A DNA stretch of 64,000 nt from a virus. The translations under genes were made by a program, and so were the position numbers. The stretch lies in IMG/VR virus record IMGVR_UViG_3300020045_002314, positions 26,193 through 90,192 of that record. One strand, given 5' to 3'. The notes under the pieces are model-generated. The model ran no database searches, had not been told where the DNA came from, and was given only the letters and a program-made list of their open reading frames with translations. Positions 6,001 through 49,080 of the stretch are shown piece by piece; positions within the stretch are counted from its first letter, which is position 1; each line of letters starts with the position of its first letter.

Positions 6001-9000
6001 AAAGATGATAAAACTGAATATCGTGTAAATGTAGCACGTTATGAAAAACTATCAATCTTTATAATAGATGAATTATTTGTACAACCTGATAGTGAAATGC
6101 AAGAATTACTTACAGCGATGAATGAAGGTATTGATGGTAAACCTATAGACAGAATTATATTTGCATCAGGTAAGAAAGATGGTAACGTAAAAAGATATTC
6201 TATCTTTGATGAAAATGCTAAATTTAATAAAGATTTATTTAAAGCACAACCACATATTGTAGAAGATATACCAGTATCAAAATATAAAATACAATTAGAA
6301 GTACCTGATGATATTAGAGATAAAGAAATAAAAGTAGGAGTACAATTATATAAACATATAGCTAGTAATATAAATAATATACATTCTTACAAACCTTCTT
6401 TTTTAATTTCTAAAAATGATATATCAGGTAAACAATTAAAACAAGAACATCAAAATACATTTAGTTCTATAATTAAGAAACAATCAACTAATTTATTAAA
6501 AACATTATATGATAATTTAAATCTTAGAGATAATGCAGACCATACATTGATTTATAATAATTTAGTAAGAGCATTACAAGATAGAAATATACCTAATGAT
6601 ATTATTAAATCTATTAAATTAATTAATAAAAAGATTGTTACAGATTTAGGTGCTAATGGTATAAATGATAAAATAGTACCAGTTATTAATTCATTATTTA
6701 GAAATAATATAACAGATACTAAATTAGAAGGTGGACATACTGTTATTTTATCTGATGCTTTTTCTAATACAAGTTTAAAAGATGCAGAATATTCTGATGA
6801 TTTAAAATGTTATGCAGATGAAAATGGTAATTGGGTTGTAGAAGTATATATGCCTGTATGGAATTCTGAATTATTAGATGAATTAGGTAATCCAGTTGAT
6901 ATATCTAAATTAGATAATAAATTATTAAATGGGATTGGTTATCGTGTACCTATTACATCACAACATAGTATGGTTACATATAAAGTAAAAGGATTTACAC
7001 CTCCAACATCAGGTAGTGTAATTACATTACCTTCTAATTTAATAACACAAACAGGATGGGATTTTGATGTTGATAGTATTTATTTATTAACTAAAACCAT
7101 AAAGAAGATAAAAGGTAGATATTATGCTAATAGTTATAAACGTATAACTTATCAAGATTATTTAAATAATTCTATACTTGAAAATTATAACTTATCTGAA
7201 TTAACTGAAATATCAGCTAAATATATAAGTTTAGATTCTGAATTAAAAACATTAAATAAATCTTTAGATAATGCTGAATTAAAAACATCTACTAATTATA
7301 AAGAAAATTATAATAAATTACAATATCTATTAGAACGATATAATAAAGAGATAGATGTAGACAAAAAACAGAAGATGGAGAAAAGTCTATATAATTTAAG
7401 AGTTATGTTATTAATGGATGCTGCATTAGAAATAAATACAAATGTAGATGAAGAATTTAAATCTAAGTTTAAAACACTTAAAGATGAAAAAGATAAATAT
7501 TTTAAAGAGATAACTAAATTATTAATTAATAAAGGTTTAATTTATAAAGAAAGTAAGTTTGAAGAATTAGTTAAATCAGATATAACTACTGTACTTACTA
7601 TAGAACAATTACAAAATAGAATGATTGATATATGGACAGATATGTTAAGTCAAAATAATGGTTTTATAGCAATGGTTACATCTTCTACAATTAAACCTAA
7701 TGAATTAATTAGAGATGAAATAAATACTATATTTGAAAGTAATAAAGTAAGTAAAAGCCCTATATTAGCTAGTAATAATTTTAATACAAGAATTAATACA
7801 ACATCAGGAAAAGAGATGTTAGGTATTGCAGCTAATAGTGGTTCGATTATAACTATATTAGAAGAAGGTAGTGCAGTATTAAACTATGATTTACAAATAC
7901 CTTATTATATTGAATATAATGATGTAAATTTAAATAATGTACAAAATGATTATGGTAATTATGAAGTTATTACATTTAATAATCGTAAGTATATTAAAAC
8001 TAAATTTAAAAATATAGGTTGGAACGATAGTGGAGATACTAGAATGTTAACTAAATTATATGAAGATAATAACGATGTTGAATATACATATACTATTTCA
8101 GAATCTATAGGTTGGGATACAGACCATTCAGTAGATATTAATTCATCGTTAATGCCTAGAAATATAAATCGTAATACAATAGGTACTAATATTGCAGCTA
8201 AAATGTTGAAATTACCACCTAGATATATTACATTATTATTTAATCAAAAAATCATAGATGATATGTTAAATTTAATAAATAAACATAATCCTAATGATGG
8301 TAGATTAAATGCAAAAACAGCTATCGAAGATATTTATTTTACAATGTTATTTAAGAAATTAGCATATACTGATAATAAATTTAATAATAATGTTGAGTAT
8401 GTAGAAATGAATAGAGATTATATTAAACATAATACTGTATTATCGAATAAGTTATATAATGATAATAAAAGTGTATATGATATATTCAATATTGTAGATG
8501 AACCTTTTGATGAAGTTGATTTAAAAAACTTTATAATTGAAGGATTAGATATTCAAAAACAGCCAGTAGATAAACAAGTAGAGTTTATTAAGAAGCAACT
8601 TAATGTATTTAAAATGTATAAATATTTGAATAGTACATCAGAAGCAATGTTAGGTGAAACATCTAAAATGAATGCTGATAAAATAGATTCAGGTATAACA
8701 TTTGATGCTGTTACAGATTTAATTAAAGCTGTAGATAGTAAAGATAAAGTTGTTATATATACAAATACAGGTAAACCATTCTTAAAAGAATTATATAGTA
8801 ATCCTGATTTATATAAATTAATGTATACATATTATAAAGAAGGAGTTGAGAATTTATATAATATAGCTAAAGATTTATTTGGTTATTTAACACCTACTTT
8901 AAAAACTGAAATAGATGGATTCCATGAATTATATCCTTATGCTAGAAGAGAAGTTTATAAATTTATAAGAAGTATATATTATAGTATATATAAAGATTTT

Positions 9001-9840
9001 AATTTATTTAAATTAGCTAATGATGAAGTTAATCAAAATTTATATAACTTAAAAAATGATAATAGTTTAGTATCAAGAATAGTTAAATTAAAAAGTAAAC
9101 CTGAAAATCAACAACCTATTTGGTTACAATATATAAATGTTGTACCTTTTAGAAATAATCAAAACTACGCATATTTAACATTTACTAATTATAATAATAA
9201 AATGTTAAATTATATACATGATAGTTTTAATAATTATATAGATGAAAACATAGAAGATAATTATACACTTGTTGAAGATTTAGTTAAATATGCTTATTTC
9301 AAAGAAGGATTTACATATAAATATAGTAATATTTCTAATTTATTAACAGATTTTACATTTACTATTTTAGGTTTTAATGATTATAAAATAAATGCTTTTA
9401 ATAAAATTAAAACAGATACTTTAAATTTAGATACAAATAATATATTATTATCATTCTTATTAACTAATAGATATGATAATCAGTTTGTACCTAAAGTAAA
9501 AGTAACTAAAAAGAATAAAACATGGGATGTATTAAATGGTAATAAGATAAAGAATATTATTACTATTGATGCTACAAGTTATGCAAGATTATATAGTAAT
9601 ATTCAAAATGCTCCTATTGTTAGGCGAACAATTAAATATAATAATAAGTTTATAGATTTATTTTATTATAAAACATTTGATGAAGTTAATAAAATACATG
9701 AATATAAATTATTAGATACTAAAAAACTATTACCTTATACTAATATATCTTTAAATAATATTAATAATATAGATAATGTAGCAGGTGTTTCTTTTTATGA
9801 TAACGATGATATGTCAGTTGAATTATATTGTAACAATTAA
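1..9840 (+). CDS. Giant virion-associated RNA polymerase polyprotein, crAss-like, probably 5'-truncated by the window edge. It carries ART-like, L,D-transpeptidase-like and zincin-like domains.
   Basis: 3279-aa ORF open from base 1. Two-barrel RNAP metal-binding motif in TQTGWDFDVDS (DFDVD at nt 7060-7074), preceded by GYRVP. HEAFE zincin-like motif near nt 2935. IHET...TWGCVNV LDT-like motif near nt 2280-2380. VYHG...GIWFS...EQVVVFNPDQI ART-like segment at nt ~1000-1430. Confidence 0.85.
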   Translation: MQNNTQYANNPSEFLKHLSNSFSGKNAAKGKNVDFLTRIYNDAITSQEIIKSLTTQDKVNLKYVKSSSGQYNKSNKQRPLFEVFDKTKGRLAHYSNGILQYRNSDGTTDAVYNQQLIDTVQKFKKPNGYYWVTTENFNKSEFPIKLGQRNITTDEALNIYNELLKNNYNPIYKLLTTNKIKDLLKQVSGIDKDIKSYTSQDLDKTKFMELATNTFVDFIFGNDNVKHNRSSYDNLGSIFTTDVNYVLDNEGNKIGVTTPFASTTNISYVERAFTLILELDNTQVNNITKFDNTNLNNIKNGVEELFNSNPDLANIGTQEQYSAYLDTIFPDSKVKDVVYHGANEPIEGDKFVVRPGATGNGIWFSGSKRYATQVLNRAPQQESLLGRKLRGEPTMYSAILNIINPKHYKDASGAILAQSPERFLEGKIEEYRLHGNEQYNKDIDDGALFHHPNSKKPDTSDSAEQVVVFNPDQIHILGSKQDIEGFKEFINDTPIITDISVQELEDILDKEKQKLLNPLIEEKQELETLLEEYEEFKNINNIKIKELIFSNEININSIITDNVTEIEIEEIAKEEYIKIEEVKPLIEKTLNTVLNDKRKLTNLNSKLKTIISKILKTILTLGIIFTLHTNFKNDIKEYKIKEVIKTEVNIDTIDNSYDKLTNDGKIAYLQEKQNNKAFIIIDKPTATAYIYDKDGKLIKYFPVLLGQSIGDEISKSDANSDVAENAFTTSGRYVLQAAPEKVLSEYNNRLMYIDSETGLAIHETYKGELKERTKALNTPTIDDNRKTWGCVNVSSENYDIYLAPHIQPGSVIIITRDFQNNIVKPINIQESKKTSKQSNVSFNILALLGLSSLLRKKQISNLSEQDIESLKNRIIDINNKINEIKTYYANIRINNNLIQELEDDDLPDVFRRTPINQKEINIKSSYESAKQYLEERLGNVKFNWLNEYVERIPDVKTHGFVSNAAITLIEGAAYGTEYHEAFEYVFKYLIGDTYKSEVISEASKYYKTDDVNLLREQLAEDYRLYEILRNEENKPKTIIDFFKHLFKTLREFISLSPYTKRLFEDIYNGRFVNKEILTNNENVGIIANNYLNSIKGFTPSNLDSSINLTVALMVAAQNHTQIINGKRVKLSDISIETIVTNKTDDGSFNNKYNIKHVVINILAKKINTMFKDKSEVYKITYDKFNEQYITSLDTIEAITFTNYLNNNTAILNDLKYNNTDVSIYSLARKYMNDKLFTSFYDINDLEEIKDNRVNALTKMYDENIFSESHSYNFSPIVKQYLASIKEKTFDINGGVIDKLDDFTGLPKFIDFEILYNKLIDILAGTHTIDEKLNVLKTHSNFHPTLKEIYNKLTELQDNKLANEDLYNAFMSDFTGTYFDEYATNLTEEAIYLNKLNQTPKENILNTIKGNIYSNQAITKLTIEDLKGYLTIINSSTNNSEIMDMLVKIFNYISVPITKDILYSYIKDETINIDNKTTLLKSLVTEDKLNGLLKVVNSSNNNNKDINIYLEKYSEMINKYSLAKLELSYTDINGNKKYSFRKYNTINEFFSKLKSKHEPNQNSVKEYLMELMLDNSYHYSNWLFNNKGLLVKEGSRVSLNTNLVSNFDIALYGGSKNATGQTSGYLRETHFEQAINNLSWYMNSKFISPMPFGDSTNHYMIKAINFKLLPNDITIKDKSIILSDKSDIFIALRNVILQEKIRMSEAKMYMYNKDGKLKPDYELEQLNLIENVHYKVDKSGNRIYRDEKGNPVGNIFKFNNIELTEDIIYNGEVQLNLVNEQVINDAIQKLINNEMNSNLGVLYKSLNSEFPTISDTEFNNIILELLMNTLITNVEIGNFFNGNIMQQSKVAGVNKRAKKGIQFGYNLYSNSTLSTIVVNDRMINLNTKGESNRKETYTNIINRVSTIVNTNYNNKYKDIILANIKSQYSADINSTDGWSIMTIDGYVKMYLEGKGRFNDYRYLFNYTNGKYTLKSNLSKQDIKAVLQVIKPIMVDMKSNIIKDDKTEYRVNVARYEKLSIFIIDELFVQPDSEMQELLTAMNEGIDGKPIDRIIFASGKKDGNVKRYSIFDENAKFNKDLFKAQPHIVEDIPVSKYKIQLEVPDDIRDKEIKVGVQLYKHIASNINNIHSYKPSFLISKNDISGKQLKQEHQNTFSSIIKKQSTNLLKTLYDNLNLRDNADHTLIYNNLVRALQDRNIPNDIIKSIKLINKKIVTDLGANGINDKIVPVINSLFRNNITDTKLEGGHTVILSDAFSNTSLKDAEYSDDLKCYADENGNWVVEVYMPVWNSELLDELGNPVDISKLDNKLLNGIGYRVPITSQHSMVTYKVKGFTPPTSGSVITLPSNLITQTGWDFDVDSIYLLTKTIKKIKGRYYANSYKRITYQDYLNNSILENYNLSELTEISAKYISLDSELKTLNKSLDNAELKTSTNYKENYNKLQYLLERYNKEIDVDKKQKMEKSLYNLRVMLLMDAALEINTNVDEEFKSKFKTLKDEKDKYFKEITKLLINKGLIYKESKFEELVKSDITTVLTIEQLQNRMIDIWTDMLSQNNGFIAMVTSSTIKPNELIRDEINTIFESNKVSKSPILASNNFNTRINTTSGKEMLGIAANSGSIITILEEGSAVLNYDLQIPYYIEYNDVNLNNVQNDYGNYEVITFNNRKYIKTKFKNIGWNDSGDTRMLTKLYEDNNDVEYTYTISESIGWDTDHSVDINSSLMPRNINRNTIGTNIAAKMLKLPPRYITLLFNQKIIDDMLNLINKHNPNDGRLNAKTAIEDIYFTMLFKKLAYTDNKFNNNVEYVEMNRDYIKHNTVLSNKLYNDNKSVYDIFNIVDEPFDEVDLKNFIIEGLDIQKQPVDKQVEFIKKQLNVFKMYKYLNSTSEAMLGETSKMNADKIDSGITFDAVTDLIKAVDSKDKVVIYTNTGKPFLKELYSNPDLYKLMYTYYKEGVENLYNIAKDLFGYLTPTLKTEIDGFHELYPYARREVYKFIRSIYYSIYKDFNLFKLANDEVNQNLYNLKNDNSLVSRIVKLKSKPENQQPIWLQYINVVPFRNNQNYAYLTFTNYNNKMLNYIHDSFNNYIDENIEDNYTLVEDLVKYAYFKEGFTYKYSNISNLLTDFTFTILGFNDYKINAFNKIKTDTLNLDTNNILLSFLLTNRYDNQFVPKVKVTKKNKTWDVLNGNKIKNIITIDATSYARLYSNIQNAPIVRRTIKYNNKFIDLFYYKTFDEVNKIHEYKLLDTKKLLPYTNISLNNINNIDNVAGVSFYDNDDMSVELYCNN

Positions 9841-9850
9841 TTAAGTAATT

Positions 9851-12800
9851 ATGATTTGTCCTAATTTAAAAAACAAAGAAGTTAAAATAGAATTTATGAA
9901 GATTTCAAATCTTATAGGTAGTAACAATGCTTATAAGGTTTGGAATTTAAATAATGGTAATCCATTACATTTAAATTCAGATGGTAGCCCTAGTCAAACT
10001 TATAAAGATTTAATGAATAAGTTAATAAATGATGAAGAACTTGTTATTAAAAAGATAAGTGAAAATTTATTAAATAATGAAATAATTATTGAACCTAATG
10101 AACTTCAAAAACAATCATTTATAGCATTTAATGAAATAGCTACTGAACAATATACAAATAAAGTTAAAGATTTATTATTATATAATTTTAGTAAAATAGG
10201 TTTAAATAACATTAACGTAATAGCGGATACTACATTAAAAGATAATGCCAGTGTAGAGAAAATAGATGGTGTTATAACAATTAAATTCAATCCTAATAAA
10301 ATTAAAAACGATAGTATATTTCATGAATTTGGACATATCTATATAGACTTAATAGAAGATAAAGTATTTATACAAAATATTATAGATAAACTTAAAGGTA
10401 CTGATTTATGGTATAAAATAGCTTTATTATATCCTGAACTTACAGAAGAACAATTAGGTAAAGAAGTATTAACTACTGCTATAGGAATGAAAGCAAAAGA
10501 AATATATAATACAAGTGAAGATGTTTCATGGTGGAAATTTATAGTTAATTTAATTAAATCTAAGTTACAAGAATTATTTAATACTAAAGAACATCAAATT
10601 GAACAATTAGCTAATGATTTAATAACAGGTGATTTTAGTAAACAAATAAATCATAATTATGATATATTATTACAACATCAAAAAGATGCTATTGATATTA
10701 ATTCATTAAAAGATTGGACAGAAGCAATACAATCACAATCTAATAAACTACAATCGTTAATAAAACAATATAAAGATTTAGGTATAAGACCTGAGGAAGT
10801 TAATGATAGTATTAAAGTAAAAGCTAAATATGATAGATATTTAAATCATTTAAATAATACTAATTTAACTAATATGTTTGAAGCTTGTGTATCAATGTTA
10901 GAATTTGATAAAACAACTTTAATAACAGTAGAACAAGATATTGAAAAACTTAAAAAAGTATTTAATAAAAACTTTACACCTGAAACAATAACTTTAGATG
11001 AATTTAATTATTTAAATCAACGTATAAACTTTGCACGTAATTTTGTTAATTCAATAATTGATATATCTAATATAACAAATCCATTATTAGCTACAGATTT
11101 AGATTTTATTAATGGAGAATTATCTCAAGAAGAAGTTACATATATAAATAATATTAATAATTCATATTTAAAATTAATGCAATCTGTTGATATTAAAAGT
11201 TTTGATAGACGTGTTAAAGAAATTAATATGGTTTTAGATAAGTTTAGACAAATATCTATGACTTGGGTTTTACAATTAAGTAGTAATCCTAGATATGAAA
11301 AGTTTGAACAATCAGATTGGATGGATTTATATAAAACTGGATTAGTAGATGAAACAACAATGCAATTATATTTCGATTCTATATTTGATAGTAGTAATTC
11401 ATTCTTAGCTAATTTTGCTAAATATGAAATGTTTAATTATTCCTTTATGAATGATGAAATAAGAAGATTAAAAATAGAATTTAATAAACAATTAAAAACA
11501 GCAGGTGGAAATGATGTTTATGATAAGATTATAGAAAATGGTAGATTAATACAAAAATATAAATTTAGTGAATTTTGGACAGACTTAAATAAAGCTTTAA
11601 CAGAAGGTAATAAAAATGATGCATGGAATATTAAATTAAAGTATGCAAATATTGCTACACCTGATGAATTTAATAAAGCTATTGTTAATATGCGTTCTAA
11701 AGTTAAAGATGATTTAGATTTAAAACAAATGTCTGTAGAAGAAGCTAGTAATTATATTACAGAAGAAGAATGGAATCTATGGATTAAAGATAACTTTCAT
11801 CAAAAATCAGATGGTACTTATATACCTAGAATAGGAGGATTATATGCTTTACCTAAAGATACTTATATAAATCCTAAATGGGAAACGTTACAATCTAATC
11901 CTATAACTAAAGAATTTCATGGATATATGGTAGAATTAATGCGTAAACTTACAAGTCATGCTTCTAATTCACCACAGTATAAAGGTTATATGGCTGCTAT
12001 ATCTAAAACTAAATTAAATAAAGTAAAAGTAGAAAAGTTAGATGAAGAGTTTTCAGATATGGATGGTAATAAATTATATACTATCCCATTCCCATTTTTA
12101 GGTTATTTAAGTAATGAAACTAAAATACCAATTCGTCAACAAGTTACTGATGAAACAGATGAAATGTATGAAAAAAGTATAGTTGACTATGCTAATCTTT
12201 TATTTAAAGATAAAGTTGGATTTGTACCTTTTACAACATTAAAAGAAATATTAAAAGAAAATGATAATATTGAAAAACGTAATAAAGAATTTCATAAAGA
12301 ACACGTTAATACAGATTTAAAATATACAATGGATTTATTTATTGAATCAGCTATTACTAATAAATATAAAGCTAGAATGTATGATAGTGTTATGTTAGCA
12401 TTATATTCATTTGAAAATGATACATTAATAAATACAAATAATAAAGGTAAAAATGTTATTGATAAGTTAAAGTATGCAATAGGTTTAACAGATTCAGGAG
12501 AAATTAATAGACAACCAAACACCTATCTTACTAAAGGGGTCTTAACCAAATCAGCTAAACATCTTCGTAAAAAGATTGAAATGACTTTCTTTGATATGTT
12601 TACTAAACCTAATGATTATAATGATGTTCTACAAAAGTTTAAAAATTATACATCTTTAATTGGTATAGGTTTTAATGGTTTAGCAGCATTTAAAAATGTT
12701 ACATATGGTGGTTATATGTCATTAATAGAAAGTAGTTGTAAACAATTTATATCTTTTAAATCATTAGATAAAGGTGCTAGATTATATCATTCAGGATTAG

Positions 12801-14128
12801 TAGATTATTTCTCTACAATGAATAGTGAAACTAGTAATACTTTAGTAGGTGCTTTAATTAAACGCTTAAATATTATAGAAAACTATACAGACTTATTAGA
12901 AAAACAATCACCTAGTTTACATGAAAATAAATTACATAAATTATTTATATCTACAGCTTATGCAGGTACTACAATGGGTGAACATATGATGCATAATACT
13001 GTATTAATGGCTATGTTAAATGAGTATAAATTAATTGATGGTAAACTTACAAATTATAAAGATTATAGTAGGAAATTGATTAAAAAAACTGAAACAGATA
13101 ATATTGATGAAATTGATAAAAAAAACAAAGATTTATTAGATACATTCAATAATACACCTAGTTTAATAAATATGTTTGAATTAATAGATGGTGTAGCTGA
13201 AATTAAAAAAGATGAAAATGGTAAACCATTAATATCAGATATTCAATATGCTCAATTTAAATCATTAGTAAAAGGTGTTAATCAACATCTTCATGGTATT
13301 TATAATAAAGAAGATAAAGGTATTATTGAGAATAATGTTTTAGGTCAATTATTAATGCAATTTAGACATTGGATGCGACCAGGTTGGAATAAGAGGTTTA
13401 ATAGTAGAGGAGTACCATACATCTTTCAAATATGGAATAGTAAAGAATTTGGTGAAAATCAAAACTATTGGAATGAACGTAGAAATGTTGAATCTTATGG
13501 AGATTATAATAGTTTAACTAAAGCATTAACTAGTGGTATTAAAGAACAATATATTGAACATCTTAATAATAAAATAGTAGATAATAAATTAGGTAATAAA
13601 TCTTTAGCTATACTTTCAAGTATTTCATTAGGTATGTATAAACAAATAGTAAATGCTAGAATGTATTGGAATACAATGAATGATGAAGAAAAGTCAGGTG
13701 CTATAAGAGCAATTGCAGAATTAGGTATGGTTGCATTATTAATAACTGTTTATAGTTTAGCATTTGACGACGACGATGATGATAAATACTTTGGTAAAGA
13801 TTTTCTTATATATCAATTAGATGCTTCTATTACAGAGTTATTAAGTTATGTACCTTTATACGGATGGGTTAACGAAGGTCTTAAAGTAACTGCAAATCCT
13901 ACTGGAACATGGTCTACAATGTTAAAGTTATTTAAATTAACTAAAGAATTAGTAGAGTATCCATTTGTAAAAGAAGATGAACTTTATTATAAAAGAGGTG
14001 TACATAAAGGAGAATTACAATTAAAATGGATGTTTATAAACGTAGTACCAATTGGAGGACAAATAAATAGATGGATGAAGTTAGACGACCAAAACAAAGC
14101 ATATAAGCAATGGGGAATGCCACAATAG
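9851..14128 (+). CDS. Large virion/ejection protein with N-terminal zincin-like domain
   Basis: 1425 aa, directly after the RNAP gene. HEFGH (HExxH) motif and a C-terminal hydrophobic helix. Position is typical of crAss-like cargo proteins. Confidence 0.65.
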   Translation: MICPNLKNKEVKIEFMKISNLIGSNNAYKVWNLNNGNPLHLNSDGSPSQTYKDLMNKLINDEELVIKKISENLLNNEIIIEPNELQKQSFIAFNEIATEQYTNKVKDLLLYNFSKIGLNNINVIADTTLKDNASVEKIDGVITIKFNPNKIKNDSIFHEFGHIYIDLIEDKVFIQNIIDKLKGTDLWYKIALLYPELTEEQLGKEVLTTAIGMKAKEIYNTSEDVSWWKFIVNLIKSKLQELFNTKEHQIEQLANDLITGDFSKQINHNYDILLQHQKDAIDINSLKDWTEAIQSQSNKLQSLIKQYKDLGIRPEEVNDSIKVKAKYDRYLNHLNNTNLTNMFEACVSMLEFDKTTLITVEQDIEKLKKVFNKNFTPETITLDEFNYLNQRINFARNFVNSIIDISNITNPLLATDLDFINGELSQEEVTYINNINNSYLKLMQSVDIKSFDRRVKEINMVLDKFRQISMTWVLQLSSNPRYEKFEQSDWMDLYKTGLVDETTMQLYFDSIFDSSNSFLANFAKYEMFNYSFMNDEIRRLKIEFNKQLKTAGGNDVYDKIIENGRLIQKYKFSEFWTDLNKALTEGNKNDAWNIKLKYANIATPDEFNKAIVNMRSKVKDDLDLKQMSVEEASNYITEEEWNLWIKDNFHQKSDGTYIPRIGGLYALPKDTYINPKWETLQSNPITKEFHGYMVELMRKLTSHASNSPQYKGYMAAISKTKLNKVKVEKLDEEFSDMDGNKLYTIPFPFLGYLSNETKIPIRQQVTDETDEMYEKSIVDYANLLFKDKVGFVPFTTLKEILKENDNIEKRNKEFHKEHVNTDLKYTMDLFIESAITNKYKARMYDSVMLALYSFENDTLINTNNKGKNVIDKLKYAIGLTDSGEINRQPNTYLTKGVLTKSAKHLRKKIEMTFFDMFTKPNDYNDVLQKFKNYTSLIGIGFNGLAAFKNVTYGGYMSLIESSCKQFISFKSLDKGARLYHSGLVDYFSTMNSETSNTLVGALIKRLNIIENYTDLLEKQSPSLHENKLHKLFISTAYAGTTMGEHMMHNTVLMAMLNEYKLIDGKLTNYKDYSRKLIKKTETDNIDEIDKKNKDLLDTFNNTPSLINMFELIDGVAEIKKDENGKPLISDIQYAQFKSLVKGVNQHLHGIYNKEDKGIIENNVLGQLLMQFRHWMRPGWNKRFNSRGVPYIFQIWNSKEFGENQNYWNERRNVESYGDYNSLTKALTSGIKEQYIEHLNNKIVDNKLGNKSLAILSSISLGMYKQIVNARMYWNTMNDEEKSGAIRAIAELGMVALLITVYSLAFDDDDDDKYFGKDFLIYQLDASITELLSYVPLYGWVNEGLKVTANPTGTWSTMLKLFKLTKELVEYPFVKEDELYYKRGVHKGELQLKWMFINVVPIGGQINRWMKLDDQNKAYKQWGMPQ

Positions 14129-18544: not shown

Positions 18545-18757
18545 TTAAAAGTCTTTTAGTGCATAACAATATTTACAATGTCTATATTGTTTATGACTAT
18601 CACTTGTTGTATCTATAAAACCATCAAAATGATTATTATCTTTACAAAATTGTTGATTAACTTCTACAGCTTTATTAATAAGATTTATTTTATCTTGTGC
18701 TATTTTTAAATCTCCTTCTAATGCAACTGATATAAATTGTATTTGTTCTTTAGTCAT
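18545..18757 (-). CDS. Hypothetical protein, possible Zn-binding
   Basis: 70 aa, C..H and CxxC near the C-terminus. Confidence 0.55.
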   Translation of the reverse strand: MTKEQIQFISVALEGDLKIAQDKINLINKAVEVNQQFCKDNNHFDGFIDTTSDSHKQYRHCKYCYALKDF

Positions 18758-19916
18758 GATTAAATTTGTTTATAAATAATTCTAAAACTTCATCTCTAAA
18801 CTTAATATCAATTGGTCTTAAATTAATACCTTGTTGTCCATCATTGTTTTCATCTTTATAATTAGTATAATAAGTATAATTGATAGTATAAATTTCATTA
18901 ATATATTTTTTAAGAAATTGATAAGTATTAAAATAACTTTTATCTGTTTCATCAGGATTACCAATAATAATATTTAATATTGGTTTAGCACATGAATTTA
19001 CAACATTACTAAAAGCTTTATTAAAAGTTCTAATATTAAAAGGTTTATTGTATTTTTGTAAAATGAAATCATTATAACTTTCTAATCCTATTTCTACAAA
19101 TTTAATATTAGTATTCATAAATACATTCTTTATATTTTCATGCACTAAATATTTAGGAGAAGTTTGAATTATATATCCACAATAATGGTCATGAAAATTA
19201 GAATGATGTAATTGATAATCTGCTAAAGTTAAGTTTTCATTCCATTTTTTATCTTGAAAAAATGTTTTATCATCAATATAAATTAATTTATGATTTAATT
19301 TATTAATTCCATTACACTGATTTATAATTTGAGAATGACTTAATGATACAACTCCTTTATCAATAGTACAAAAACTACAATGAAAATTACAATTTTTACT
19401 TAGTTGTAATCTAGGTATAGTAGGTTCATTATTAAATAAAGAATAATCTAAACCATAATAATAATCAACTCCTAGTAATTTACACATAGTTTCAATAGAA
19501 TCTACATTAGATATATTAACATATTGGTGAATACCTTGAAATGTATCATCTTCAATAATTGTATAACCGCCCATTATAAATTTAGTTTTAGTACTACAAA
19601 ACATATTTTGTTCTATAAATCTTTTTATAATATGTTTATTACAATCCATTACTGAAAATAAAATATAATCATACCTATTTAAATTAGGTATTTTATTAAA
19701 ATTATCAATAGTTATAATTTTAAATTCTAATTCAAAACTATTTTTTAAAGTATAAGTACATTCAGCTACCCATCTAGGTAATTCATAATAATCTTTATGT
19801 TTATAATAACCATCTTTCTGTGCATATTTGAAGAAACTATCTTCAAATTCTTGTTCTAATTCATTATTTGTTTTAATTAAAGTAGAACTTATTTGCAACA
19901 TTAATATTTTACTCAT
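18750..19916 (-). CDS. Radical SAM protein with N-terminal cobalamin-binding-like region
   Basis: CNFHCSFC (CxxxCxxC), IDDKTF, IGLES, IIGNPDET; N-terminal ...FIMGG resembles the B12-binding domain of class B radical SAM enzymes. Confidence 0.85.
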   Translation of the reverse strand: MSKILMLQISSTLIKTNNELEQEFEDSFFKYAQKDGYYKHKDYYELPRWVAECTYTLKNSFELEFKIITIDNFNKIPNLNRYDYILFSVMDCNKHIIKRFIEQNMFCSTKTKFIMGGYTIIEDDTFQGIHQYVNISNVDSIETMCKLLGVDYYYGLDYSLFNNEPTIPRLQLSKNCNFHCSFCTIDKGVVSLSHSQIINQCNGINKLNHKLIYIDDKTFFQDKKWNENLTLADYQLHHSNFHDHYCGYIIQTSPKYLVHENIKNVFMNTNIKFVEIGLESYNDFILQKYNKPFNIRTFNKAFSNVVNSCAKPILNIIIGNPDETDKSYFNTYQFLKKYINEIYTINYTYYTNYKDENNDGQQGINLRPIDIKFRDEVLELFINKFNHD

Positions 19917-25353: not shown

Positions 25354-26928
25354 TTAATCAAGGATTATTTCAGAAATACTTTTTATGTATTGTGGTGGAT
25401 AACTATTTTCCTTTTGTCTAGTTTGTAATTTAACTTTATCCCTAGATGAATATTTAACATCATCATTAGTAAAGTCATCAAAATAAACATTTACAATACC
25501 TACAGTTTCATTTTCATTAAAAGGATTAATAGTATTTACTCTATTCTTACGTTGTTTATATGAAACTGGATTAGTACTACCACTACCTACAATTGCAAAA
25601 TTCATATCTGCAATATCTAAACCTTCATCTAATGAATTTACAGTTACTAATATCGAATATTTATTATATTTAAAGCCATCTATTGTTAAATTTCTAAGAC
25701 TTGTTTTACCAAACATCTTAGGTTTACCAATATTATTACCTGTTTTATAACATATAATCTCTCCATTATCATCTTTTAATACTGTAGATTCTATCTTAGA
25801 ATGAAAGCATATAGCTTTATTACCATGTCGACTATTTATCATATCAGTAATATAATTTGCAGTAGGGATACTACCACAAAATATAATTATCTTTTTATCA
25901 ATAAATGTATCTACTAATTCTAATATAGCTAATTTTTTAGTTATTGAATCATTTATAATACTATTTCTTTTATCAATATAAAATTTAAATTTATCACTTC
26001 GAGTTTCAATATATAAAGGATTAAATATATCATTTATTGTTTTATTATATTGTGTATCTAATGGTAAATCTTTATGCCAACCTTTTGTATAAGCAATCAT
26101 TTTACGTACTTTATCAGGTTTGATAAAATAATTTAAATGTTCTACCCAATAACCTGATTGACATTTTATTAATAATTCAAAAGTATTTTTAAATTGTATC
26201 TTACTACTTTGTAATCCAACTTGTGTATTAAAGTCCCATGTAATATTTTGCATTTCTGCATTAACAGAATCAAATAATTTTAATGTTTCTGTAATATATT
26301 CAGTGTATTTAATATAAGCTAATTCTTCATCTTCTGAAAAATTAATTCTATAATTAAATTCTTTATAGTTAGAAATCCATTTATTCTTTCTAGCATCTTC
26401 TTCAGTTATAACATCTATAATAGGATATACTTTATAAAATTCTTCATTATCTTTAACAGGTGGTAATGTACCACTTAATCCTATTATAGACAATCTTAAT
26501 TTTCTTACAATATTTCCTAATTCAATTATAAAATTATAAGCATCTTCACTAGTATATTTATGAATTTCATCTAATATATACATATCAGATTCAGATACTT
26601 CAAAACTATTATCTTTATATTTATTTAATATAGTATTAATAGTATATACTTTAAAGTTATGTATTTGATATTCATAAGGGACTGTATTATTATAAAATAA
26701 TATACTATCTTCCCATTGGTGTAATAATACTTCTTTAGATACAATTATACGAATATTAAATGTATCTGTATAACTTTTATCTATTTTAAATTTAGAAGCA
26801 CATTTTAAGGCAGTTAACGTCTTACCAAAACGAGGTACATAATCAAATATACCTATGTAATTTAGTTCAACATATCTTGCGACACCCCTTGATTGTCGCA
26901 TTGTTTTCGATTCTATTTCATAGTTCAT
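25354..26928 (-). CDS. Superfamily 2 helicase
   Basis: PRFGKT (Walker A), LDEIH, GLSGT, SLDEGLD, QRKNR. Confidence 0.85.
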   Translation of the reverse strand: MNYEIESKTMRQSRGVARYVELNYIGIFDYVPRFGKTLTALKCASKFKIDKSYTDTFNIRIIVSKEVLLHQWEDSILFYNNTVPYEYQIHNFKVYTINTILNKYKDNSFEVSESDMYILDEIHKYTSEDAYNFIIELGNIVRKLRLSIIGLSGTLPPVKDNEEFYKVYPIIDVITEEDARKNKWISNYKEFNYRINFSEDEELAYIKYTEYITETLKLFDSVNAEMQNITWDFNTQVGLQSSKIQFKNTFELLIKCQSGYWVEHLNYFIKPDKVRKMIAYTKGWHKDLPLDTQYNKTINDIFNPLYIETRSDKFKFYIDKRNSIINDSITKKLAILELVDTFIDKKIIIFCGSIPTANYITDMINSRHGNKAICFHSKIESTVLKDDNGEIICYKTGNNIGKPKMFGKTSLRNLTIDGFKYNKYSILVTVNSLDEGLDIADMNFAIVGSGSTNPVSYKQRKNRVNTINPFNENETVGIVNVYFDDFTNDDVKYSSRDKVKLQTRQKENSYPPQYIKSISEIILD

Positions 26929-35849: not shown

Positions 35850-36941
35850 TTAATCAATTTTAATATTATCAAAAATACCTACATATCTACTTTGAAATTC
35901 CTTTAACATCGGAATCATTATCTCTCTCATTTGAGGATGTGCTGCTTTACTTGTACGTTGTGTAAATATATGATGCCATTCTTGTAAATTAGCAATCATA
36001 TTAATTTCAGTTTTAAGAGAATTAGGAAGTACACTTCTAGCTATTTGAGGAGGTTCACCTGCTGCAATTAATTTATTATAAGCAATTTCACAATAAGTTA
36101 TTGTATCTAACCATATATTTAAACTTTCTAATGGGTTTTTTAAATGAGGATAAATATCAATATATCCAACTTCACCTATTTTACCATCTTCGCTATAATT
36201 ACAATATCTAGTAGATTCTTGTGCATATCCAACAGGACGATGTCTTACTAATTCATGACTAACTCCCCTATCACAAGTAATAAGATAATGTTCTCTTATA
36301 TGATGTACTGTTTCAAATATAGATAAATCATCAGTAGATATAAGTACTATACTATTTCCTAATTTTTCAGTATTATATTCAACTATTTCATATAAATCTT
36401 CAAAAAGAAATTTATAATTACTATATAATAAATGAAATAATTCAATATCATATAATTCTACATTGTTAGTTTTAATAAAATATTTAAAATATTCTCTATA
36501 AGTTCTAATACTAGCAGATATTAAATATCTATTTTTAAATTCATCGTATGTAAATGTAAAATATTTAGAATTAATTTCTTCTATATCTAATTCATTTTCT
36601 AAATAGTTAGTAAATTGCATATCATTGATTATAATATCATAATATTCTTTAGGTAAAGAAATAATGGGATGATATCCAAATTCAAGAACTGCTAAATGTC
36701 CCCTATCTATAATAGTATTTTTAAGTAGTTTACGACCACTAATAGCATTTTTAATAAAAGGTACAACTGTAGTAAAATCAGCATCTGTAATTCTACCTTC
36801 CCAATCATCTACTTCTCCAATACATTCAAACTTACCTTCTGACTTATAACAAGTTCTTGCAGCTTGTTCAATATTTACTATCATACCTTCTTCATAATCT
36901 AGAAGAGGTATATGTTGAAATTTAGGTTTTATTAATTTCAT
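35850..36941 (-). CDS. thyX: FAD-dependent thymidylate synthase
   Basis: AARTCYKS, GH.AVLEF, SHELVRHR...QESTRY, ARSVLPN, AHPQMRE. Confidence 0.95.
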   Translation of the reverse strand: MKLIKPKFQHIPLLDYEEGMIVNIEQAARTCYKSEGKFECIGEVDDWEGRITDADFTTVVPFIKNAISGRKLLKNTIIDRGHLAVLEFGYHPIISLPKEYYDIIINDMQFTNYLENELDIEEINSKYFTFTYDEFKNRYLISASIRTYREYFKYFIKTNNVELYDIELFHLLYSNYKFLFEDLYEIVEYNTEKLGNSIVLISTDDLSIFETVHHIREHYLITCDRGVSHELVRHRPVGYAQESTRYCNYSEDGKIGEVGYIDIYPHLKNPLESLNIWLDTITYCEIAYNKLIAAGEPPQIARSVLPNSLKTEINMIANLQEWHHIFTQRTSKAAHPQMREIMIPMLKEFQSRYVGIFDNIKID

Positions 36942-37242: not shown

Positions 37243-37893
37243 TTATTTAAGTTTCCAATTATGATTAATTAAATCATCTTTAGTTATATAACATTGTGGG
37301 TTATTAACCATTAATTTTACAAGATATTCATTATTATTTAAAACAGAATAAATAAGTAATTCATTAGAATCATCGTCGATATCCACTATTATATTATTTT
37401 TATATAAGTTTTGATTTGAATATATAATGAAAGGTTTACGATACAAACCTAAATTTAAAGTTTCATCTTTAGTTGTAATTTTTATAATATGTTCAATATT
37501 ATGAATAGAAGATTTAATATCTAATGTTTTAATAAGTTGTATAAATTTACCATCATCTGAATTAACAAAATAATCAAAATAATTATTATTATTATACCAT
37601 TGGTGCATCCATGATTTATTAATAACAGATAAACTAATAAACATTATATTGTGTTCTTTAGCATACTTTTCACATTCTAATAATAATGTATTTCCAATAC
37701 CTTGTCTTTGAAAATCTTCATATACATATAAATCACTAATCCATATAGAATTAGGACTATTATCATATAATGTAAGTTTAACAATTCCTAAAGTTATTAA
37801 TAAAACAGTATCTAAATATGTAATATAAATATATTTATTATTATCATCATTAAATTTACATTCTAGGATATTTATTTTAGTATTTCGTTTCAT
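37243..37893 (-). CDS. GNAT-family acetyltransferase
   Basis: ISDLYV.EDFQRQGIGNTLL (acetyl-CoA-binding motif A). Confidence 0.8.
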   Translation of the reverse strand: MKRNTKINILECKFNDDNNKYIYITYLDTVLLITLGIVKLTLYDNSPNSIWISDLYVYEDFQRQGIGNTLLLECEKYAKEHNIMFISLSVINKSWMHQWYNNNNYFDYFVNSDDGKFIQLIKTLDIKSSIHNIEHIIKITTKDETLNLGLYRKPFIIYSNQNLYKNNIIVDIDDDSNELLIYSVLNNNEYLVKLMVNNPQCYITKDDLINHNWKLK

Positions 37894-40316: not shown

Positions 40317-40547
40317 TTAAATTTTGATTATTACTTTAATAGGATAATTATAAGGTTCTATTAATTTTTGTATTATTCTTGGTTTAGAAAATACAAATAT
40401 TCTTTTATCTGCAATTCTTTTAATCTTTTGAATAGCTTTAATACGCTTTAATAACTTTAAAACTTTATCTTCATCCATAGTTCCTTCATAACTAATTATC
40501 TTAGATTCTATAGTTAAATGAATTTTAGGCTTAACTTTCTTTTTCAT
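40317..40547 (-). CDS. Small basic hypothetical protein
   Basis: 76-aa Lys-rich ORF. Confidence 0.5.
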   Translation of the reverse strand: MKKKVKPKIHLTIESKIISYEGTMDEDKVLKLLKRIKAIQKIKRIADKRIFVFSKPRIIQKLIEPYNYPIKVIIKI

Positions 40548-40577
40548 ATATTAAATATATAATTAATTATTTATATT

Positions 40578-40608
40578 TAAAAGGGGACTACTATCTTCAT
40601 CCCCTTTA
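40578..40608 (-). terminator. Terminator closing the tmRNA coding piece
   Basis: AAAGGGGA...TCCCCTTTT hairpin a few nt after the tag stop codon. Confidence 0.8.
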
Positions 40609-40879
40609 TAGTTCTTATGCAGCTGCTTTTACAGGTGCGAACATGAATTGATTACTGTTTCCAGTTATTGTTTACTTTAACTCTATTTATACATACTTCA
40701 AATGCTGTCAAAACCAAGATGCCCCTATTTAAATAAGAGTAGATATTTTACTACCTACTCTTTCAACATACGTTGTTGATTGACGTTCAATTGACAAACC
40801 TACTTAAAAGGTTGTGGAGCATTAGGGAATCGAACCCTAGTCCAAACATTAAGTATTATAACTTAACAAGTTAAAATAG
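40578..40879 (-). ncRNA. ssrA: Circularly permuted (two-piece) tmRNA
   Basis: Minus-strand order: acceptor piece ...GGAC-TAGGG-TTCGATT-CCCTA-ATGCTCC-A (ends 40815); then an 89-nt spacer; then the coding piece GGGGCAT-CTTGGTTTTGACAG (starts 40725). The 7-bp acceptor stem has G3:U70. ATAACT resume context, then tag ORF 40662-40615 encoding GNSNQFMFAPVKAAA*. Confidence 0.9.
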
Positions 40880-40940
40880 TAGGGATAGTAGGATTTGAAC
40901 CCACATCTTCGAGTGTAATAACCAGTTATACTATATCCCT
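40880..40940 (-). ncRNA. tRNA-like element lacking an anticodon arm
   Basis: AGGGATA/TATCCCT acceptor stem, TA, D-arm GTATAACTGGTTATTAC, only 10 nt (ACTCGAAGAT) before T-arm GTGGG-TTCAAAT-CCTAC, discriminator A. Confidence 0.7.
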
Positions 40941-42863: not shown

Positions 42864-42895
42864 TATATTTATTTTTAAGATTAATAATTTAATTA

Positions 42896-43845
42896 AAATA
42901 AGTGAAATTAATAATAATTAAGATTGTACTTCATATAGTAAGAGTTTTTACTAATATATAACTCAGCCCCTATGTTCCTATAATTACGTTTGGCTTGAAC
43001 TTATCTTTATTATTAATATTCACTTATTCTGTAATATCTCCTAGTATCTCTACTAGGTCGCACAATGCAAACTTTGTTGCTACTATACTTATATTACTAT
43101 AAGTAAGGCATAATTATAACTTTGTTCCTAAGATTACGTCTAATCTTATTTAAGTAGGTACTCAACCATATTTAATTATGCTGCCACCATTATAAATTAA
43201 ATTATTAACTATAATAATTGATAATTTATAACTTTATATTACTCTACCTAACAATATTAGGTATGTATTATAAGCACGGCATTATAACCAATAGTAATGG
43301 TATTCACTTCCTGCCGTATGTACTACTTCATATACTCTTGCTAATATATGGTACAAGTTAAAACTTCTTTATAATTAATGTAATCGTGTCATAATATTTA
43401 GTATTAGTTAATTATAAACATATACTTATGTTTATTTTATATCCAATATGCAAATACGATTATATAAATTTATTATTATTATATCTATAAATACTTCTTT
43501 ATAGTAAGTTGCAGTACTAGTTGTAGTACATTTTGCATTAACACTTGATTGTTAAGAAAGCTTTATATTACAAATATAATTAATAACATCTCTTGCTATT
43601 CTAGTAATAACTACAGGATACTACCTTAGAGAATTAGTAGTTACGCCTATCTCATACCTAGACAGATAATATAATTCTAACATATTATGGTGTAAAACAG
43701 TGACACCATGCAGTAGTGGAGTTTCCAAATGAGTTGTGCAATCTGTAAATACATTATAATTTCTTTTACTAGAAAAAAGAATAATATAAACAACCCATAT
43801 AATTATAATTACCTGCATGATAAACATTCCTAGTTTAACCATACA
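42896..43845 (-). ncRNA. Candidate large (~950 nt) highly structured non-coding RNA
   Basis: More than 15 nested or adjacent helices in a nearly ORF-free region; GNRA tetraloops, G:U pairs and an AGUA/GAA module all read correctly on the minus strand. Confidence 0.6.
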
Positions 43846-46648: not shown

Positions 46649-47131
46649 AATATTAAATATAATGTAAATAAATATTAAAATAAATATAAAATAATTAATA
46701 AAGATAAGTAAGGATGAAAGACACTGTTAAAGAAATATAGGATAGAATAGAAGGATTTAATGAAATATTTAGTAGTATAGATAGTGGTGCATCTTCACAA
46801 TCACTTAATGTTTCTTAAAATAATTATACAATCATACGATAATATTTCCGAAACATTCACTTTATACAAATCATTTAATTTCTAAAACATTATAAATAAC
46901 ATTCCCTTCTTTACTACATTATTATAAAATAACTACATTTAATATCTTACTAAACATAACTATACACACATTATAATAATCTTCATTAAATCAATATAAA
47001 TAATATTTAATACTACCTATACATCATTCTATTCTACCTATATTATCTTCATCATTATTAACCTAAAACTTCATCTTTTTTATATTATGTATCAAATGTT
47101 TCTAGATGTTCTGTAAGCCCATAAAAACAAC

Positions 47132-47164
47132 AAAGAGTTGCACTCGTAATAAGCACAACTCTTT
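47132..47164 (-). terminator. Intrinsic terminator
   Basis: AAAGAGTTG...CAACTCTTT hairpin downstream of 47172. Confidence 0.7.
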
Positions 47165-47171
47165 CTGTTTG

Positions 47172-48320: not shown

Positions 48321-48795
48321 TTTATGAATTCCTAATACGATGTTTCAAAATAATTGTTGACGGGAGGTATTTCACTTCAAATACCATGAGTGTCCTATGT
48401 GCGAGGTGGTTCTCTAATACAATTTTTTACAGTATAAATTGAACGTATTAAAATATTAATATAAGACCTTCTCTTTAACTTCCTATTAATCCTTCACTAA
48501 CTTTTATAAAACTTCGTCCTTATCTTTCTAAAGGGGTCTTTTAAAAATCTATAAAAAGGGTGTACCTAGATACCTTACCTCATCTTTTAAATTAACTCTT
48601 TAACCTTCTACTAATTCTTCTATTAATATCTTTATTTTATTATATATTTTACTATATCTTTTTACATTATTAAATATACCTATAAATCTTATTATTTTTG
48701 TATATATTACAAGATTATTAAATATTTATATAAATTTATATATTAATTTACAAATGTTAAAAAATGTTAAAAGATTAATAATAATTACAGATATA

Positions 48796-48827
48796 TTTGC
48801 TTTGTATTGAAAAAAAGGTTAGCTTTG
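48796..48827 (+). promoter_or_regulatory. Bacteroidota-type promoter, distal, for the structural module
   Basis: TTTG-N20-TAGCTTTG. Confidence 0.55.
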
Positions 48828-48996
48828 TGCATTCTTAAAGCAAACAGCAAGCTATATAAACAATTTTACACCTTATTATATATAGCATTCAATTTTCTAA
48901 AATCTTTCATTAAATAATCTAATTTTATAAAATATCATTAAGATATTGTAATATATAATAAAAATTATTATATTTATAAAAAAAATACATTATTTA

Positions 48997-49029
48997 CTTG
49001 ACAATGTATATACAATTAGATTACATTTG
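48997..49029 (+). promoter_or_regulatory. Bacteroidota-type promoter, proximal, for the structural module
   Basis: cTTG-N21-TACATTTG, ~50 nt upstream of ATG 49081. Confidence 0.6.
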
Positions 49030-49080
49030 TCTTACAATTAAAAACAACTAAAATTATAACACTAATTAAAAATTCAAACA

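Follow-up and report, generated by a model that had tools for sequence, protein, structure and literature searches.

The stretch of viral DNA that we analyzed (64,000 nucleotides [nt], positions 26,193 to 90,192 of IMG/VR record IMGVR_UViG_3300020045_002314; hereafter the window) carries on its minus strand a gene for a circularly permuted, two-piece transfer-messenger RNA (tmRNA). All positions at this locus are window coordinates on the minus strand. Read in that direction, the locus consists of a tRNA-like element of 61 nt, an acceptor piece of 65 nt, a spacer of 89 nt, and a coding piece of ~146 to 150 nt. A preliminary description, made from the letters alone, had listed the parts of the tRNA-like domain (TLD) and the 89-nt spacer with their coordinates, and all of them were present as listed when we reread the sequence. 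It had also proposed ARAGORN and Rfam as checks, and both call a permuted tmRNA. ARAGORN reported "tmRNA, Permuted" at 40524–40906 with the tag GNSNQFMFAPVKAAA*, which is the tag previously read after ATAACT, and a search of the whole window with 4227 Rfam families returned RF04321 (tmRNA_permuted) at 50.2 bits against a gathering threshold of 47 (E = 7e-07). These two methods are independent of each other, and we conclude that the tmRNA gene in the window is real, well-formed, circularly permuted, and minimal. The lineage-specific models stayed below their cut-offs on the window: the alphaproteobacterial model (RF01849; cut-off 50 bits) scored 6.4 bits at another place, the betaproteobacterial model (RF01850; 84 bits) scored 25.3 bits over the TLD only, and the cyanobacterial model (RF01851; 70 bits) gave nothing at E ≤ 10.

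The acceptor piece (40815–40879; 65 nt before CCA addition) was delimited from the sequence, the Rfam alignment, ARAGORN, and RNAcofold. It holds, in order, a 5′ extension which pairs with the coding piece, GGAC (40843–40840), a T arm with the stem TAGGG/CCCTA (40839–40835 and 40827–40823) and the loop TTCGATT (40834–40828), the acceptor 3′ strand ATGCTCC (40822–40816), and a discriminator A at 40815, all read directly from the sequence. The letters that follow are CAA, so CCA is unencoded, as had been pointed out before. We placed the 5′ end of this piece from the end of the tRNA-like element. The coding piece (40580–40725), delimited from the sequence, ARAGORN, Rfam, and relatives, starts with GGGGCAT, CTT, and GGTTTTGAC; the strand for helix 2 comes next, and a linker of 10 nt leads to the tag frame, which is followed by the 3′ hairpin. 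The 3′ end of this piece is likewise our placement. GGGGCAT (40725–40719) and ATGCTCC (40822–40816) form a 7/7-bp acceptor stem which includes G3:U70, the identity pair for alanine, in agreement with the preliminary description. In the Rfam alignment the T arm follows GGAC and has a GGGUUCGAnUCCC-type loop, the 5′ half has GGnUUnGAC (its GAC at 40709–40707), and there is no anticodon arm. The tag frame (40615–40662) comprises the GGA resume codon at 40662–40660, which is preceded by ATAACT, 15 codons (GNSNQFMFAPVKAAA), and a TAA stop at 40617–40615; the last codons are GCA TAA. The frame was delimited by ARAGORN, and the Rfam alignment stops at the TAA.

When both pieces were folded together with RNAcofold, the helices AGTTAAA/TTTAACT, TATAA/TTATA, and AAGTAT/ATACTT were returned, with GACA additionally paired to TGTT. 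These are three of the four inter-piece helices that had been listed earlier; the fourth, CAGCATT/AATGTTTG, was folded by RNAcofold as GACA/TGTT instead. Both the Rfam alignment and anchored pair counts favor the CAGCATT/AATGTTTG register. The acceptor-piece strand of the distal helix (TATTTTAACTT, 40868–40878) pairs with 40673–40683, both in the RNAcofold structure and in the 7-mer test described below, and the middle helix is drawn from the window's own RNAcofold structure. By eye, all family members have a conserved internal loop between the middle and distal helices. Its first strand is of YGTTGA/TGTTAGG/GATGAAG type (TTGTTAAGT in the window, ~40859–40867), and its second is (A/G)GAGA(A) (ATAGAG in the window, on the coding strand at ~40682–40686).

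The gene belongs to a phage. The record is 90,192 bp long, has direct terminal repeats, is rated 100% complete, and has a G+C content of 23.6%. Its large terminase, portal, and head proteins match PHROG families (1.2e-98, 1e-43, and 4.7e-75, respectively), and a tblastn search with the terminase returned 144 phage records, the best of which were crAss-like phages of Bacteroides, Flavobacterium, and Cellulophaga at 35 to 40% identity. The features by which we judged membership in Crassvirales (terminase, portal, capsid, a length of ~90–100 kb, and terminal repeats) were all found, and the preliminary view of a crAss-like phage is borne out by a large terminase whose identity to Crassvirales terminases does not exceed 40%. 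By these sequence comparisons, the window's phage is a very divergent crAss-like phage. It uses the standard code, its long genes being open. There is no smpB gene anywhere in the complete 90,192-bp genome, which extends what had been said of the window. ARAGORN found zero tRNA genes in the whole 90-kb genome, and the tRNA-like element was the only Rfam match in the genome besides the tmRNA.

We searched for relatives in IMG/VR with a pattern consisting of the T arm, the acceptor end, 65 to 95 nt, and the 5′ end, which matched at least 120 stretches; of the 120 listed, 110 hold a permuted tmRNA according to ARAGORN. Most of the listed matches carry A-N-D...ALAA or ANNIVAFSR-type tags. As controls, five A-N-D...ALAA loci scored ~150 bits and a sixth (L074) 101 bits on beta_tmRNA, and the two ANNIVAFSR-type loci tested scored 83 to 116 bits on cyano_tmRNA. 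Among the matches listed, a further 32 loci (20 distinct sequences) form a third set; their tags, for example GNTSYVTDYTRLVA, GNFYVTDYTRIAA, and GKTINFSNAPLRAVA, are unlike the beta or cyano types, and by blastn this set comes closest to the window. RF04321 reached its cut-off in 18 of 20 loci of this family, and the alpha, beta, and cyano models in none of the 20. A search of 16 third-set records with the window's terminase found eight with a crAss-type terminase bearing 5 to 11 in-frame TAG codons; judged by these terminases, the eight are TAG-recoded crAss-like phages, and four of them are 99 to 100% complete at 96 to 99 kb. In a blastn search of GenBank phages, two family members matched 14 and 4 records. 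Under the match, "transfer-messenger RNA, SsrA" was annotated in seven Suoliviridae records, cr125_1 (NC_055900), cr114_1, cr60_1, cr52_1, cr115_1, cr50_1 (MT774375), and cr10_1 (MT774382), which answers the earlier doubt as to whether this form had been catalogued. ARAGORN labeled all three of the Suoliviridae tmRNAs that were fetched as permuted.

A narrower pattern matched 28 stretches in a metagenome collection, with many further tag variants, and, given a wider spacer range, a single stretch among 185,579 species genomes. The assembly with that single stretch also has a crAss-type terminase with 11 in-frame TAG codons on contig C19, which is probably the same 100-kb contig as the tmRNA match. 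Given this terminase, we did not take the match as bacterial and read it as a binned phage contig. Because the species genomes yielded this one match, probably on a contig with a crAss-type terminase, the family looks phage-borne. The preliminary description had proposed an independent permutation in one phage. This proposal did not hold up: a widespread phage family shares the gene order of the window, along with its resume context and the layout of its helices, and because the gene belongs to that family, any permutation event, as far as these comparisons tell, predates the window's phage.

Within this family, we counted covariation in 29 sequences at the positions that the search patterns left free, a check which the preliminary description had suggested and which turned out in its favor. 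Acceptor pairs 5 to 7 are paired in 27/29 sequences with four to six pair types (C:G, A:U, U:A, and G:C among them), and T-stem pairs 1 and 2 in 29/29 with four pair types. In helix 2a, which has one bulged U, pairs 3 to 6 are paired in 20 to 26 of the 29 sequences, and over pairs 3 to 8, 121 of 174 cells are paired versus 55 to 77 of 174 with a slid partner. On a MAFFT alignment of 23 sequences, the covariation score was 0.336 compared with 0.138 for shuffles (standard deviation 0.012); none of 500 shuffles reached it, slid partners gave at most 0.163, and the acceptor stem was 96.3% paired. For the distal helix we used a register-free test, in which the acceptor-piece 5′ end was matched to the letters preceding the resume codon and their best-pairing 7-mer was scored. 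Scores of at least 6.5 were obtained in 12/23 cognate versus 47/506 non-cognate pairs (Mann–Whitney p = 1.1e-5), and the window scored 7/7 with TTTAACT/AGTTAAA. The partners in relatives (ATTGACT/GGTCAAT, AAATAAA/TTTATTT, ATTGAAT/ATTCAAT, and TTAGTTC/GAACTAA) differ in sequence and stay complementary. Thus, the acceptor stem, the T stem, and helix 2a are supported by compensating changes, and the distal helix by the register-free test.

These results bear on whether the gene could be a decaying relic, that is, a captured tmRNA drifting without function and recognizable only by a short GC-rich TLD in a 23% GC genome. Such decay would fit the marginal Rfam score (50.2 bits versus 57 to 74 bits in most minimal relatives), and it would fit the adjoining tRNA-like element, whose missing anticodon arm may be a sign of decay and whose fold is ordinary (z = −0.67). 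However, every stem of the tmRNA is intact, including the acceptor stem (7/7 with G3:U70), the T stem (5/5), and the helix 2 segments, and so are the tag frame and its stop. Moreover, the distal helix reads TTTAACT/AGTTAAA in the window and ATTGACT/GGTCAAT in the family, and complementarity that is kept while the sequence changes argues for selection and not drift. The genome is also tightly packed with genes. We therefore consider a relic very unlikely.

The tag was the second feature that could be compared across the family. A tag frame is present in 21/21 relatives, as the preliminary description would have expected of true homologs, and it starts 56 to 64 nt from the 5′ end (one at 82), compared with 63 nt in the window. 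The relatives' tags are 8 to 17 codons long plus a stop; most end in AA, VA, or TA, and two end in SA and GA. Within the Suoliviridae set, tag lengths vary by whole codons, and the core DYT is spelled by four synonymous codon combinations. The ATAACT-type resume context is retained in the relatives. None of 29 sequences encodes CCA fully, the two that start with CC reading CCT and CCC, and the canonical phage tRNAs beside these tmRNA genes also lack an encoded CCA; because neither the tmRNAs nor the adjoining tRNAs encode it, CCA addition by the host is the norm here.

A conserved tag is not what one would predict if the RNA were a decoy or inhibitor, which would bind host SmpB, alanyl-tRNA synthetase (AlaRS), or stalled ribosomes without tagging and thereby block host trans-translation. 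A similar role is proposed for the TLD-only RNA of mycobacteriophage DS6A, and a like molecule strongly inhibits tmRNA, according to passages of PMC4131195 and PMC11915505; the window's tmRNA lacks any pseudoknot, and its phage lacks an smpB of its own, both of which would fit a decoy. Yet a decoy needs no frame, and the frame, its distance from the 5′ end, the stop, and the small C-terminal residues are kept in all 21 relatives, with synonymous codon variation and whole-codon length changes in the tag and with the ATAACT-type context retained before the resume codon. A decoy function is, in our judgment, unlikely.

The build of this RNA is nevertheless unusual, and here the preliminary description had already seen that pseudoknots have no space. 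With a 10-nt linker (40672–40663) before the resume codon and 7 nt from the stop to the hairpin, the window has no room by spacing for pseudoknot (PK) 1 or for PK2 to PK4 (no pseudoknot-aware folding was run). Many relatives are built in this minimal way, with a short 5′ stretch, too little space for pseudoknots, and a hairpin closely following the tag. A hairpin follows soon after the stop in 14/21, the window included; the five genes of Suoliviridae type continue beyond the stop as far as a tRNA or tRNA-like element, and the remaining two, L029 and L141, show neither arrangement. As stated in passages of PMC3985003, the coding piece of known two-piece tmRNAs typically has PK1 and PK2, and plastid tmRNAs have few or no pseudoknots. 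To judge from its sequences, a pseudoknot-free build separates the family from the two-piece tmRNAs that have been described.

Our preferred interpretation is that the window holds a working two-piece tmRNA gene which belongs to a lytic crAss-like phage and depends on host proteins, and we put its probability at roughly 0.78. Several points weigh against it. The RF04321 score clears its cut-off by only 3 bits. G1–G4, C69–C72, G3:U70, and GGG/CCC were fixed by the search patterns, and their constancy is no evidence. The middle and distal helices were paired in 46 to 55% of the cells of the MAFFT alignment, a low value because that alignment is out of structural register. A duplex-energy test was weak (cognate −11.6 versus non-cognate −10.3 kcal/mol; 59 of 1000 shuffles equaled the window), a test that lets too much through when sequences are AT-rich. 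Close relatives of the window are lacking, so that conservation can be judged at the family level only: blastn of the locus against GenBank phages gave no match, the exact 29-nt TLD pattern had 0 matches in IMG/VR, the window's capsid protein had no match there, and a neighboring protein resembling deoxynucleoside monophosphate kinases found two weak IMG/VR loci with no tmRNA above cut-off. Finally, PK1 matters in Escherichia coli tmRNA, and passages of PMC3985003 describe no pseudoknot-free tmRNA shown to work in bacteria. On balance, the two-piece tmRNA is probably functional.

If it functions as tmRNA does elsewhere, transcription of the locus would yield a single minus-strand precursor comprising the tRNA-like element, the acceptor piece, the 89-nt spacer, and the coding piece. 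Host RNase P would cut 5′ of G1 (40725) and 5′ of the tRNA-like element, and an RNase Z-type nuclease would cut past the discriminator As at 40880 and 40815. A CCA-adding enzyme would finish the 65-nt acceptor piece, and the other product would be a coding piece of ~150 nt. The two pieces would be joined by the 7-bp acceptor stem and a long, interrupted helix 2 of ~29 bp. Host AlaRS would charge the RNA by way of G3:U70, and host SmpB and EF-Tu would bring it to ribosomes stalled on broken mRNA. Translation would resume on GGA, and the nascent chain would gain (A)GNSNQFMFAPVKAAA before release. The phage would thereby gain extra ribosome-rescue capacity during infection, with a tag of its own.

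The tRNA-like element that opens this predicted precursor (40880–40940, 61 nt) scored 46 bits on RF00005 against a gathering threshold of 29. It has a 7-bp acceptor stem (with G3:C70), a D arm, a T arm, and a discriminator A, and its anticodon stem-loop is replaced by ~4 nt, with 2 nt where RF00005 has 15. It lacks the full cloverleaf by which we would accept a tRNA, and ARAGORN makes no tRNA call at this position; we regard it as tRNA-like and non-decoding. A match of SpF41_sRNA over the element was discarded (27.1 bits versus a cut-off of 52). The 3′ end of the element lies one base before the acceptor piece and 36 nt before GGAC. Among the relatives, L119 and L138 have canonical tRNAs whose ends are 34 to 35 nt upstream of GGAC, and in L079 this distance is 54 nt. 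In L119, L155, cr50_1, and cr10_1, the coding piece is followed at 28 to 34 nt by a tRNA or tRNA-like element; that of cr10_1 is tRNA-like and 66 nt long, has an "anticodon" loop of 4 nt, and lies at a distance of 28 nt. In three marine lineages the spacer is a whole tRNA-Ala gene.

We give about even odds to the idea that the element is a processing signal which would set the 5′ end of the acceptor piece. Under this proposal, tRNA-processing enzymes would cut the family's precursors at flanking tRNA shapes, and in this tRNA-less phage the shape would have been kept without its decoding part. The distance of 36 nt from the element to GGAC resembles the 34 to 35 nt of the canonical tRNAs in L119 and L138, and cr10_1 has its comparable 66-nt element with a 4-nt "anticodon" loop. 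Alternatively, and with somewhat less than an even chance, the element has a job of its own, as a decoy for tRNA-cutting defense nucleases or tRNA-binding enzymes, or it is a dead tRNA gene left from a former cluster. Its 46-bit score as a tRNA with the D and T arms kept, and its being the sole tRNA-like sequence in an otherwise tRNA-free genome, speak for this alternative, and phage tRNAs often adjoin these tmRNAs, so that adjacency may just mark a former tRNA cluster. On the other hand, the element lacks the anticodon loop that a decoy for anticodon nucleases would require, and the spacing to GGAC and the counterpart in cr10_1 are more in keeping with a processing signal. Either way, the anticodon-less tRNA-like element abutting the acceptor piece is the window's own addition and is new here.

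The segment between the two pieces (40726–40814, 89 nt, delimited from the sequence) is presumed to be excised. It folds with a minimum free energy of −21.7 kcal/mol (z = −3.74), and 0 of 200 shuffles were as good. An 11-bp hairpin at ~40762–40735 is separated by 9 nt from G1 of the coding piece. The spacers of relatives are 71 to 214 nt long and unrelated in sequence; by eye, several of these otherwise unrelated spacers also have a hairpin at the 3′ end. A scan for sigma-70 promoters and terminators found nothing beyond chance, with zero terminators called. The Bacteroidota −7 promoter motif TAnnTTTG had 100 matches in the window versus 120 expected, no more than chance would give; one of them is in the spacer (40802–40795).

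At the other end of the gene, the 3′ hairpin (40580–40607), identified from the fold and from relatives, has 9 bp and a 10-nt loop and is followed by TTAAAT. The preliminary description had called it a terminator; the 9-bp hairpin is there, and the simple terminator scan did not call it, the loop being 10 nt long and just four Ts following. It could be either a terminator-like end or a stabilizing end of the coding piece. A 12-nt string (TGAAGATAGTAG) that spans the loop is common to the window, L143, L157, and L079. Near-identical loop strings (TGAAGATAGTAA, TGAATAATAGTAG, and GTGAAGTATAGTAGC) occur in these three unrelated minimal relatives, with different stems around them (GGGGA/TCCCC, CAGGG/CCCTG, and AAGGG/CCCTT), and other relatives have GCGAAA-type hairpin loops. 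This suggests that the loop string is a conserved motif, to which we assign no role. We also considered a pairing of the loop with the tRNA-like element. The loop GATAGTAG (40589–40596) is perfectly complementary over 8 nt (CTACTATC) to the 3′ strand of the element, and a 7-nt complement spans the junction of the element with the acceptor piece (40876–40890 for the two). This is probably chance, since L143, L157, and L079 have no 8-nt complement there; L143 and L157 each have one 7-nt match located elsewhere, and L079 has none.

Among known systems, the Suoliviridae tmRNAs share with the window the permuted order, the TLD, a tag that starts G-N, and membership in the order Crassvirales. They also share the resume context, ATAACT/TTAAAT followed by GGC AAY, and a helix 2 layout with a TGTTAGG-type internal loop. 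They differ in that these phages read TAG as sense (5 to 11 in-frame TAG codons in the terminase of the IMG/VR relatives), whereas the window's phage uses the standard code, and in that their coding pieces run at least 60 nt past the stop to a tRNA or tRNA-like element, whereas in the window the closing hairpin comes 7 nt after the stop. Stretches of sequence identity between the two are confined to the TLD (~35 nt) and the 5′ end (~25 nt). Closer in build are the minimal metagenomic relatives (L022/L139, L024, L079/L135, L134, L142, L143, L152, L155, L157, and others), in which, as in the window, the resume codon comes 56 to 64 nt from the 5′ end, pseudoknots have no space, and a hairpin lies 7 to 20 nt past the stop. 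Their tags of 8 to 17 codons end in (R/K)-x-x-A or MAA, and GKTINFSNAPLRAVA is the closest to the window's GNSNQFMFAPVKAAA. In L079, L119, and L138 a tRNA abuts the acceptor piece as the element does in the window, but those tRNAs are canonical, and the window's element has no anticodon arm. The minimal relatives cannot be shown to be crAss-like: searches of five of their IMG/VR records (three fragments and two that are 91 to 94% complete) with the terminase, DNA polymerase, and capsid of the window gave no match.

The two-piece tmRNAs of Alphaproteobacteria, of one betaproteobacterial lineage, and of cyanobacteria and those of their phages (RF01849, RF01850, and RF01851) resemble the window's in having a permuted gene and acceptor and coding pieces joined through the acceptor stem and helix 2. 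RNase P and tRNase Z are credited with processing them into two pieces (Keiler 2000 and Sharkady & Williams 2004, as cited in passages of PMC3985003 and PMC11915505). In these lineages the tags start A-N-D or A-N-N and in our family G-N or G-K, and their coding pieces typically keep PK1 and PK2 (passages of PMC3985003), whereas the window has none. The TLD-only RNA of DS6A and the CDS-less tmRNAs of jakobid mitochondria and some plastids are reduced and free of pseudoknots like the window's, and that of DS6A is phage-borne; as described in passages of PMC4131195, PMC11915505, and PMC3985003, these reduced forms have no tag frame, whereas the window keeps a full one. The family may have arisen separately from the alphaproteobacterial, betaproteobacterial, and cyanobacterial lineages, the one argument for this being how the lineage-specific Rfam models score.

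Phage tmRNAs as such have been surveyed: passages of PMC9004378 report that 402 phage genomes held 133 unique tmRNA structures, of which 53 were called two-piece, 50 of these from aquatic phages. The 2025 tmRNA database lists 79 phage sequences from RefSeq viruses, and RF04321 was built from alpha, beta, and cyano sequences, according to passages of PMC11915505. Our full-text literature searches, with supplementary tables outside their scope, found no paper describing a tmRNA in crAss-like phages or in this family, and in the matching passages tmRNA appeared only in methods, reference lists, or general counts. The family is thus labeled in databases and undescribed in the papers found, and the window's gene is a new, very divergent, non-recoded member of it, not a new kind of system.

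Around the locus, nine flanking proteins had no relative in any of the fetched loci by tblastn, and the seven nearest the tmRNA gene, among 20 window proteins scanned, matched no Pfam family. On the same strand, 37243–37893 encodes a GNAT acetyltransferase (1.2e-09), 35850–36941 encodes a 363-aa protein with a ThyX-type thymidylate synthase domain in its C-terminal half (Pfam Thy1, 1.5e-31), and 18750–19916 has a weak radical-SAM match (23 bits, under the cut-off of 29.5). The plus strand has two giant frames, one at 1–9840 (more than 3279 aa, open at the window start) and one at 9851–14128 (1425 aa); the 1425-aa product had no PHROG or Pfam match, and both are presumably large virion proteins typical of crAss-like phages. 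Three stretches of 520 to 760 nt each (42864–43620, 46649–47171, and 48443–49080) have no frame of at least 50 aa and match no Rfam family, and the last of these is the point where genes switch from the minus to the plus strand.

In the TAG-recoded crAss-like relatives, matches to RAGATH-9, RAGATH-22, RAGATH-6, RAGATH-7, and the Hatchet ribozyme lie near the tmRNAs (L026, 1624–1758 and 3162–3337; L129, 1304–1472; L130, 878–1044; L131, 127–305; L160, 5–587, 4767–4899, and 6427–6594). RAGATH-9 lies within ~180 nt upstream of the tmRNA in cr125_1 and L160. Rfam found no RAGATH or Hatchet match in the window.

A broader proposal, which we regard as tentative and rather doubtful, combines two ideas: that the family represents a separate, pseudoknot-free origin of split tmRNA in Bacteroidota phages and not in cells, and that its pieces are cut out by way of flanking tRNAs, the 61-nt element having been kept here as the cutting signal. 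If the second idea were true, it would be a bacterial-virus counterpart of tRNA punctuation, and the anticodon-less element offers a direct test case for the cutting of split-RNA precursors. If the gene works, an RNA of ~215 nt would show what trans-translation needs, namely a TLD, a single long helix, and a tag frame set between a short linker and a terminal hairpin, and such a minimal tmRNA bears on the debated role of PK1 and the pseudoknot ring. Takeover of host translation quality control in this manner is little studied; abundant phages of the gut and the environment would supply their own rescue RNA and degradation tag while borrowing SmpB and AlaRS from the host.

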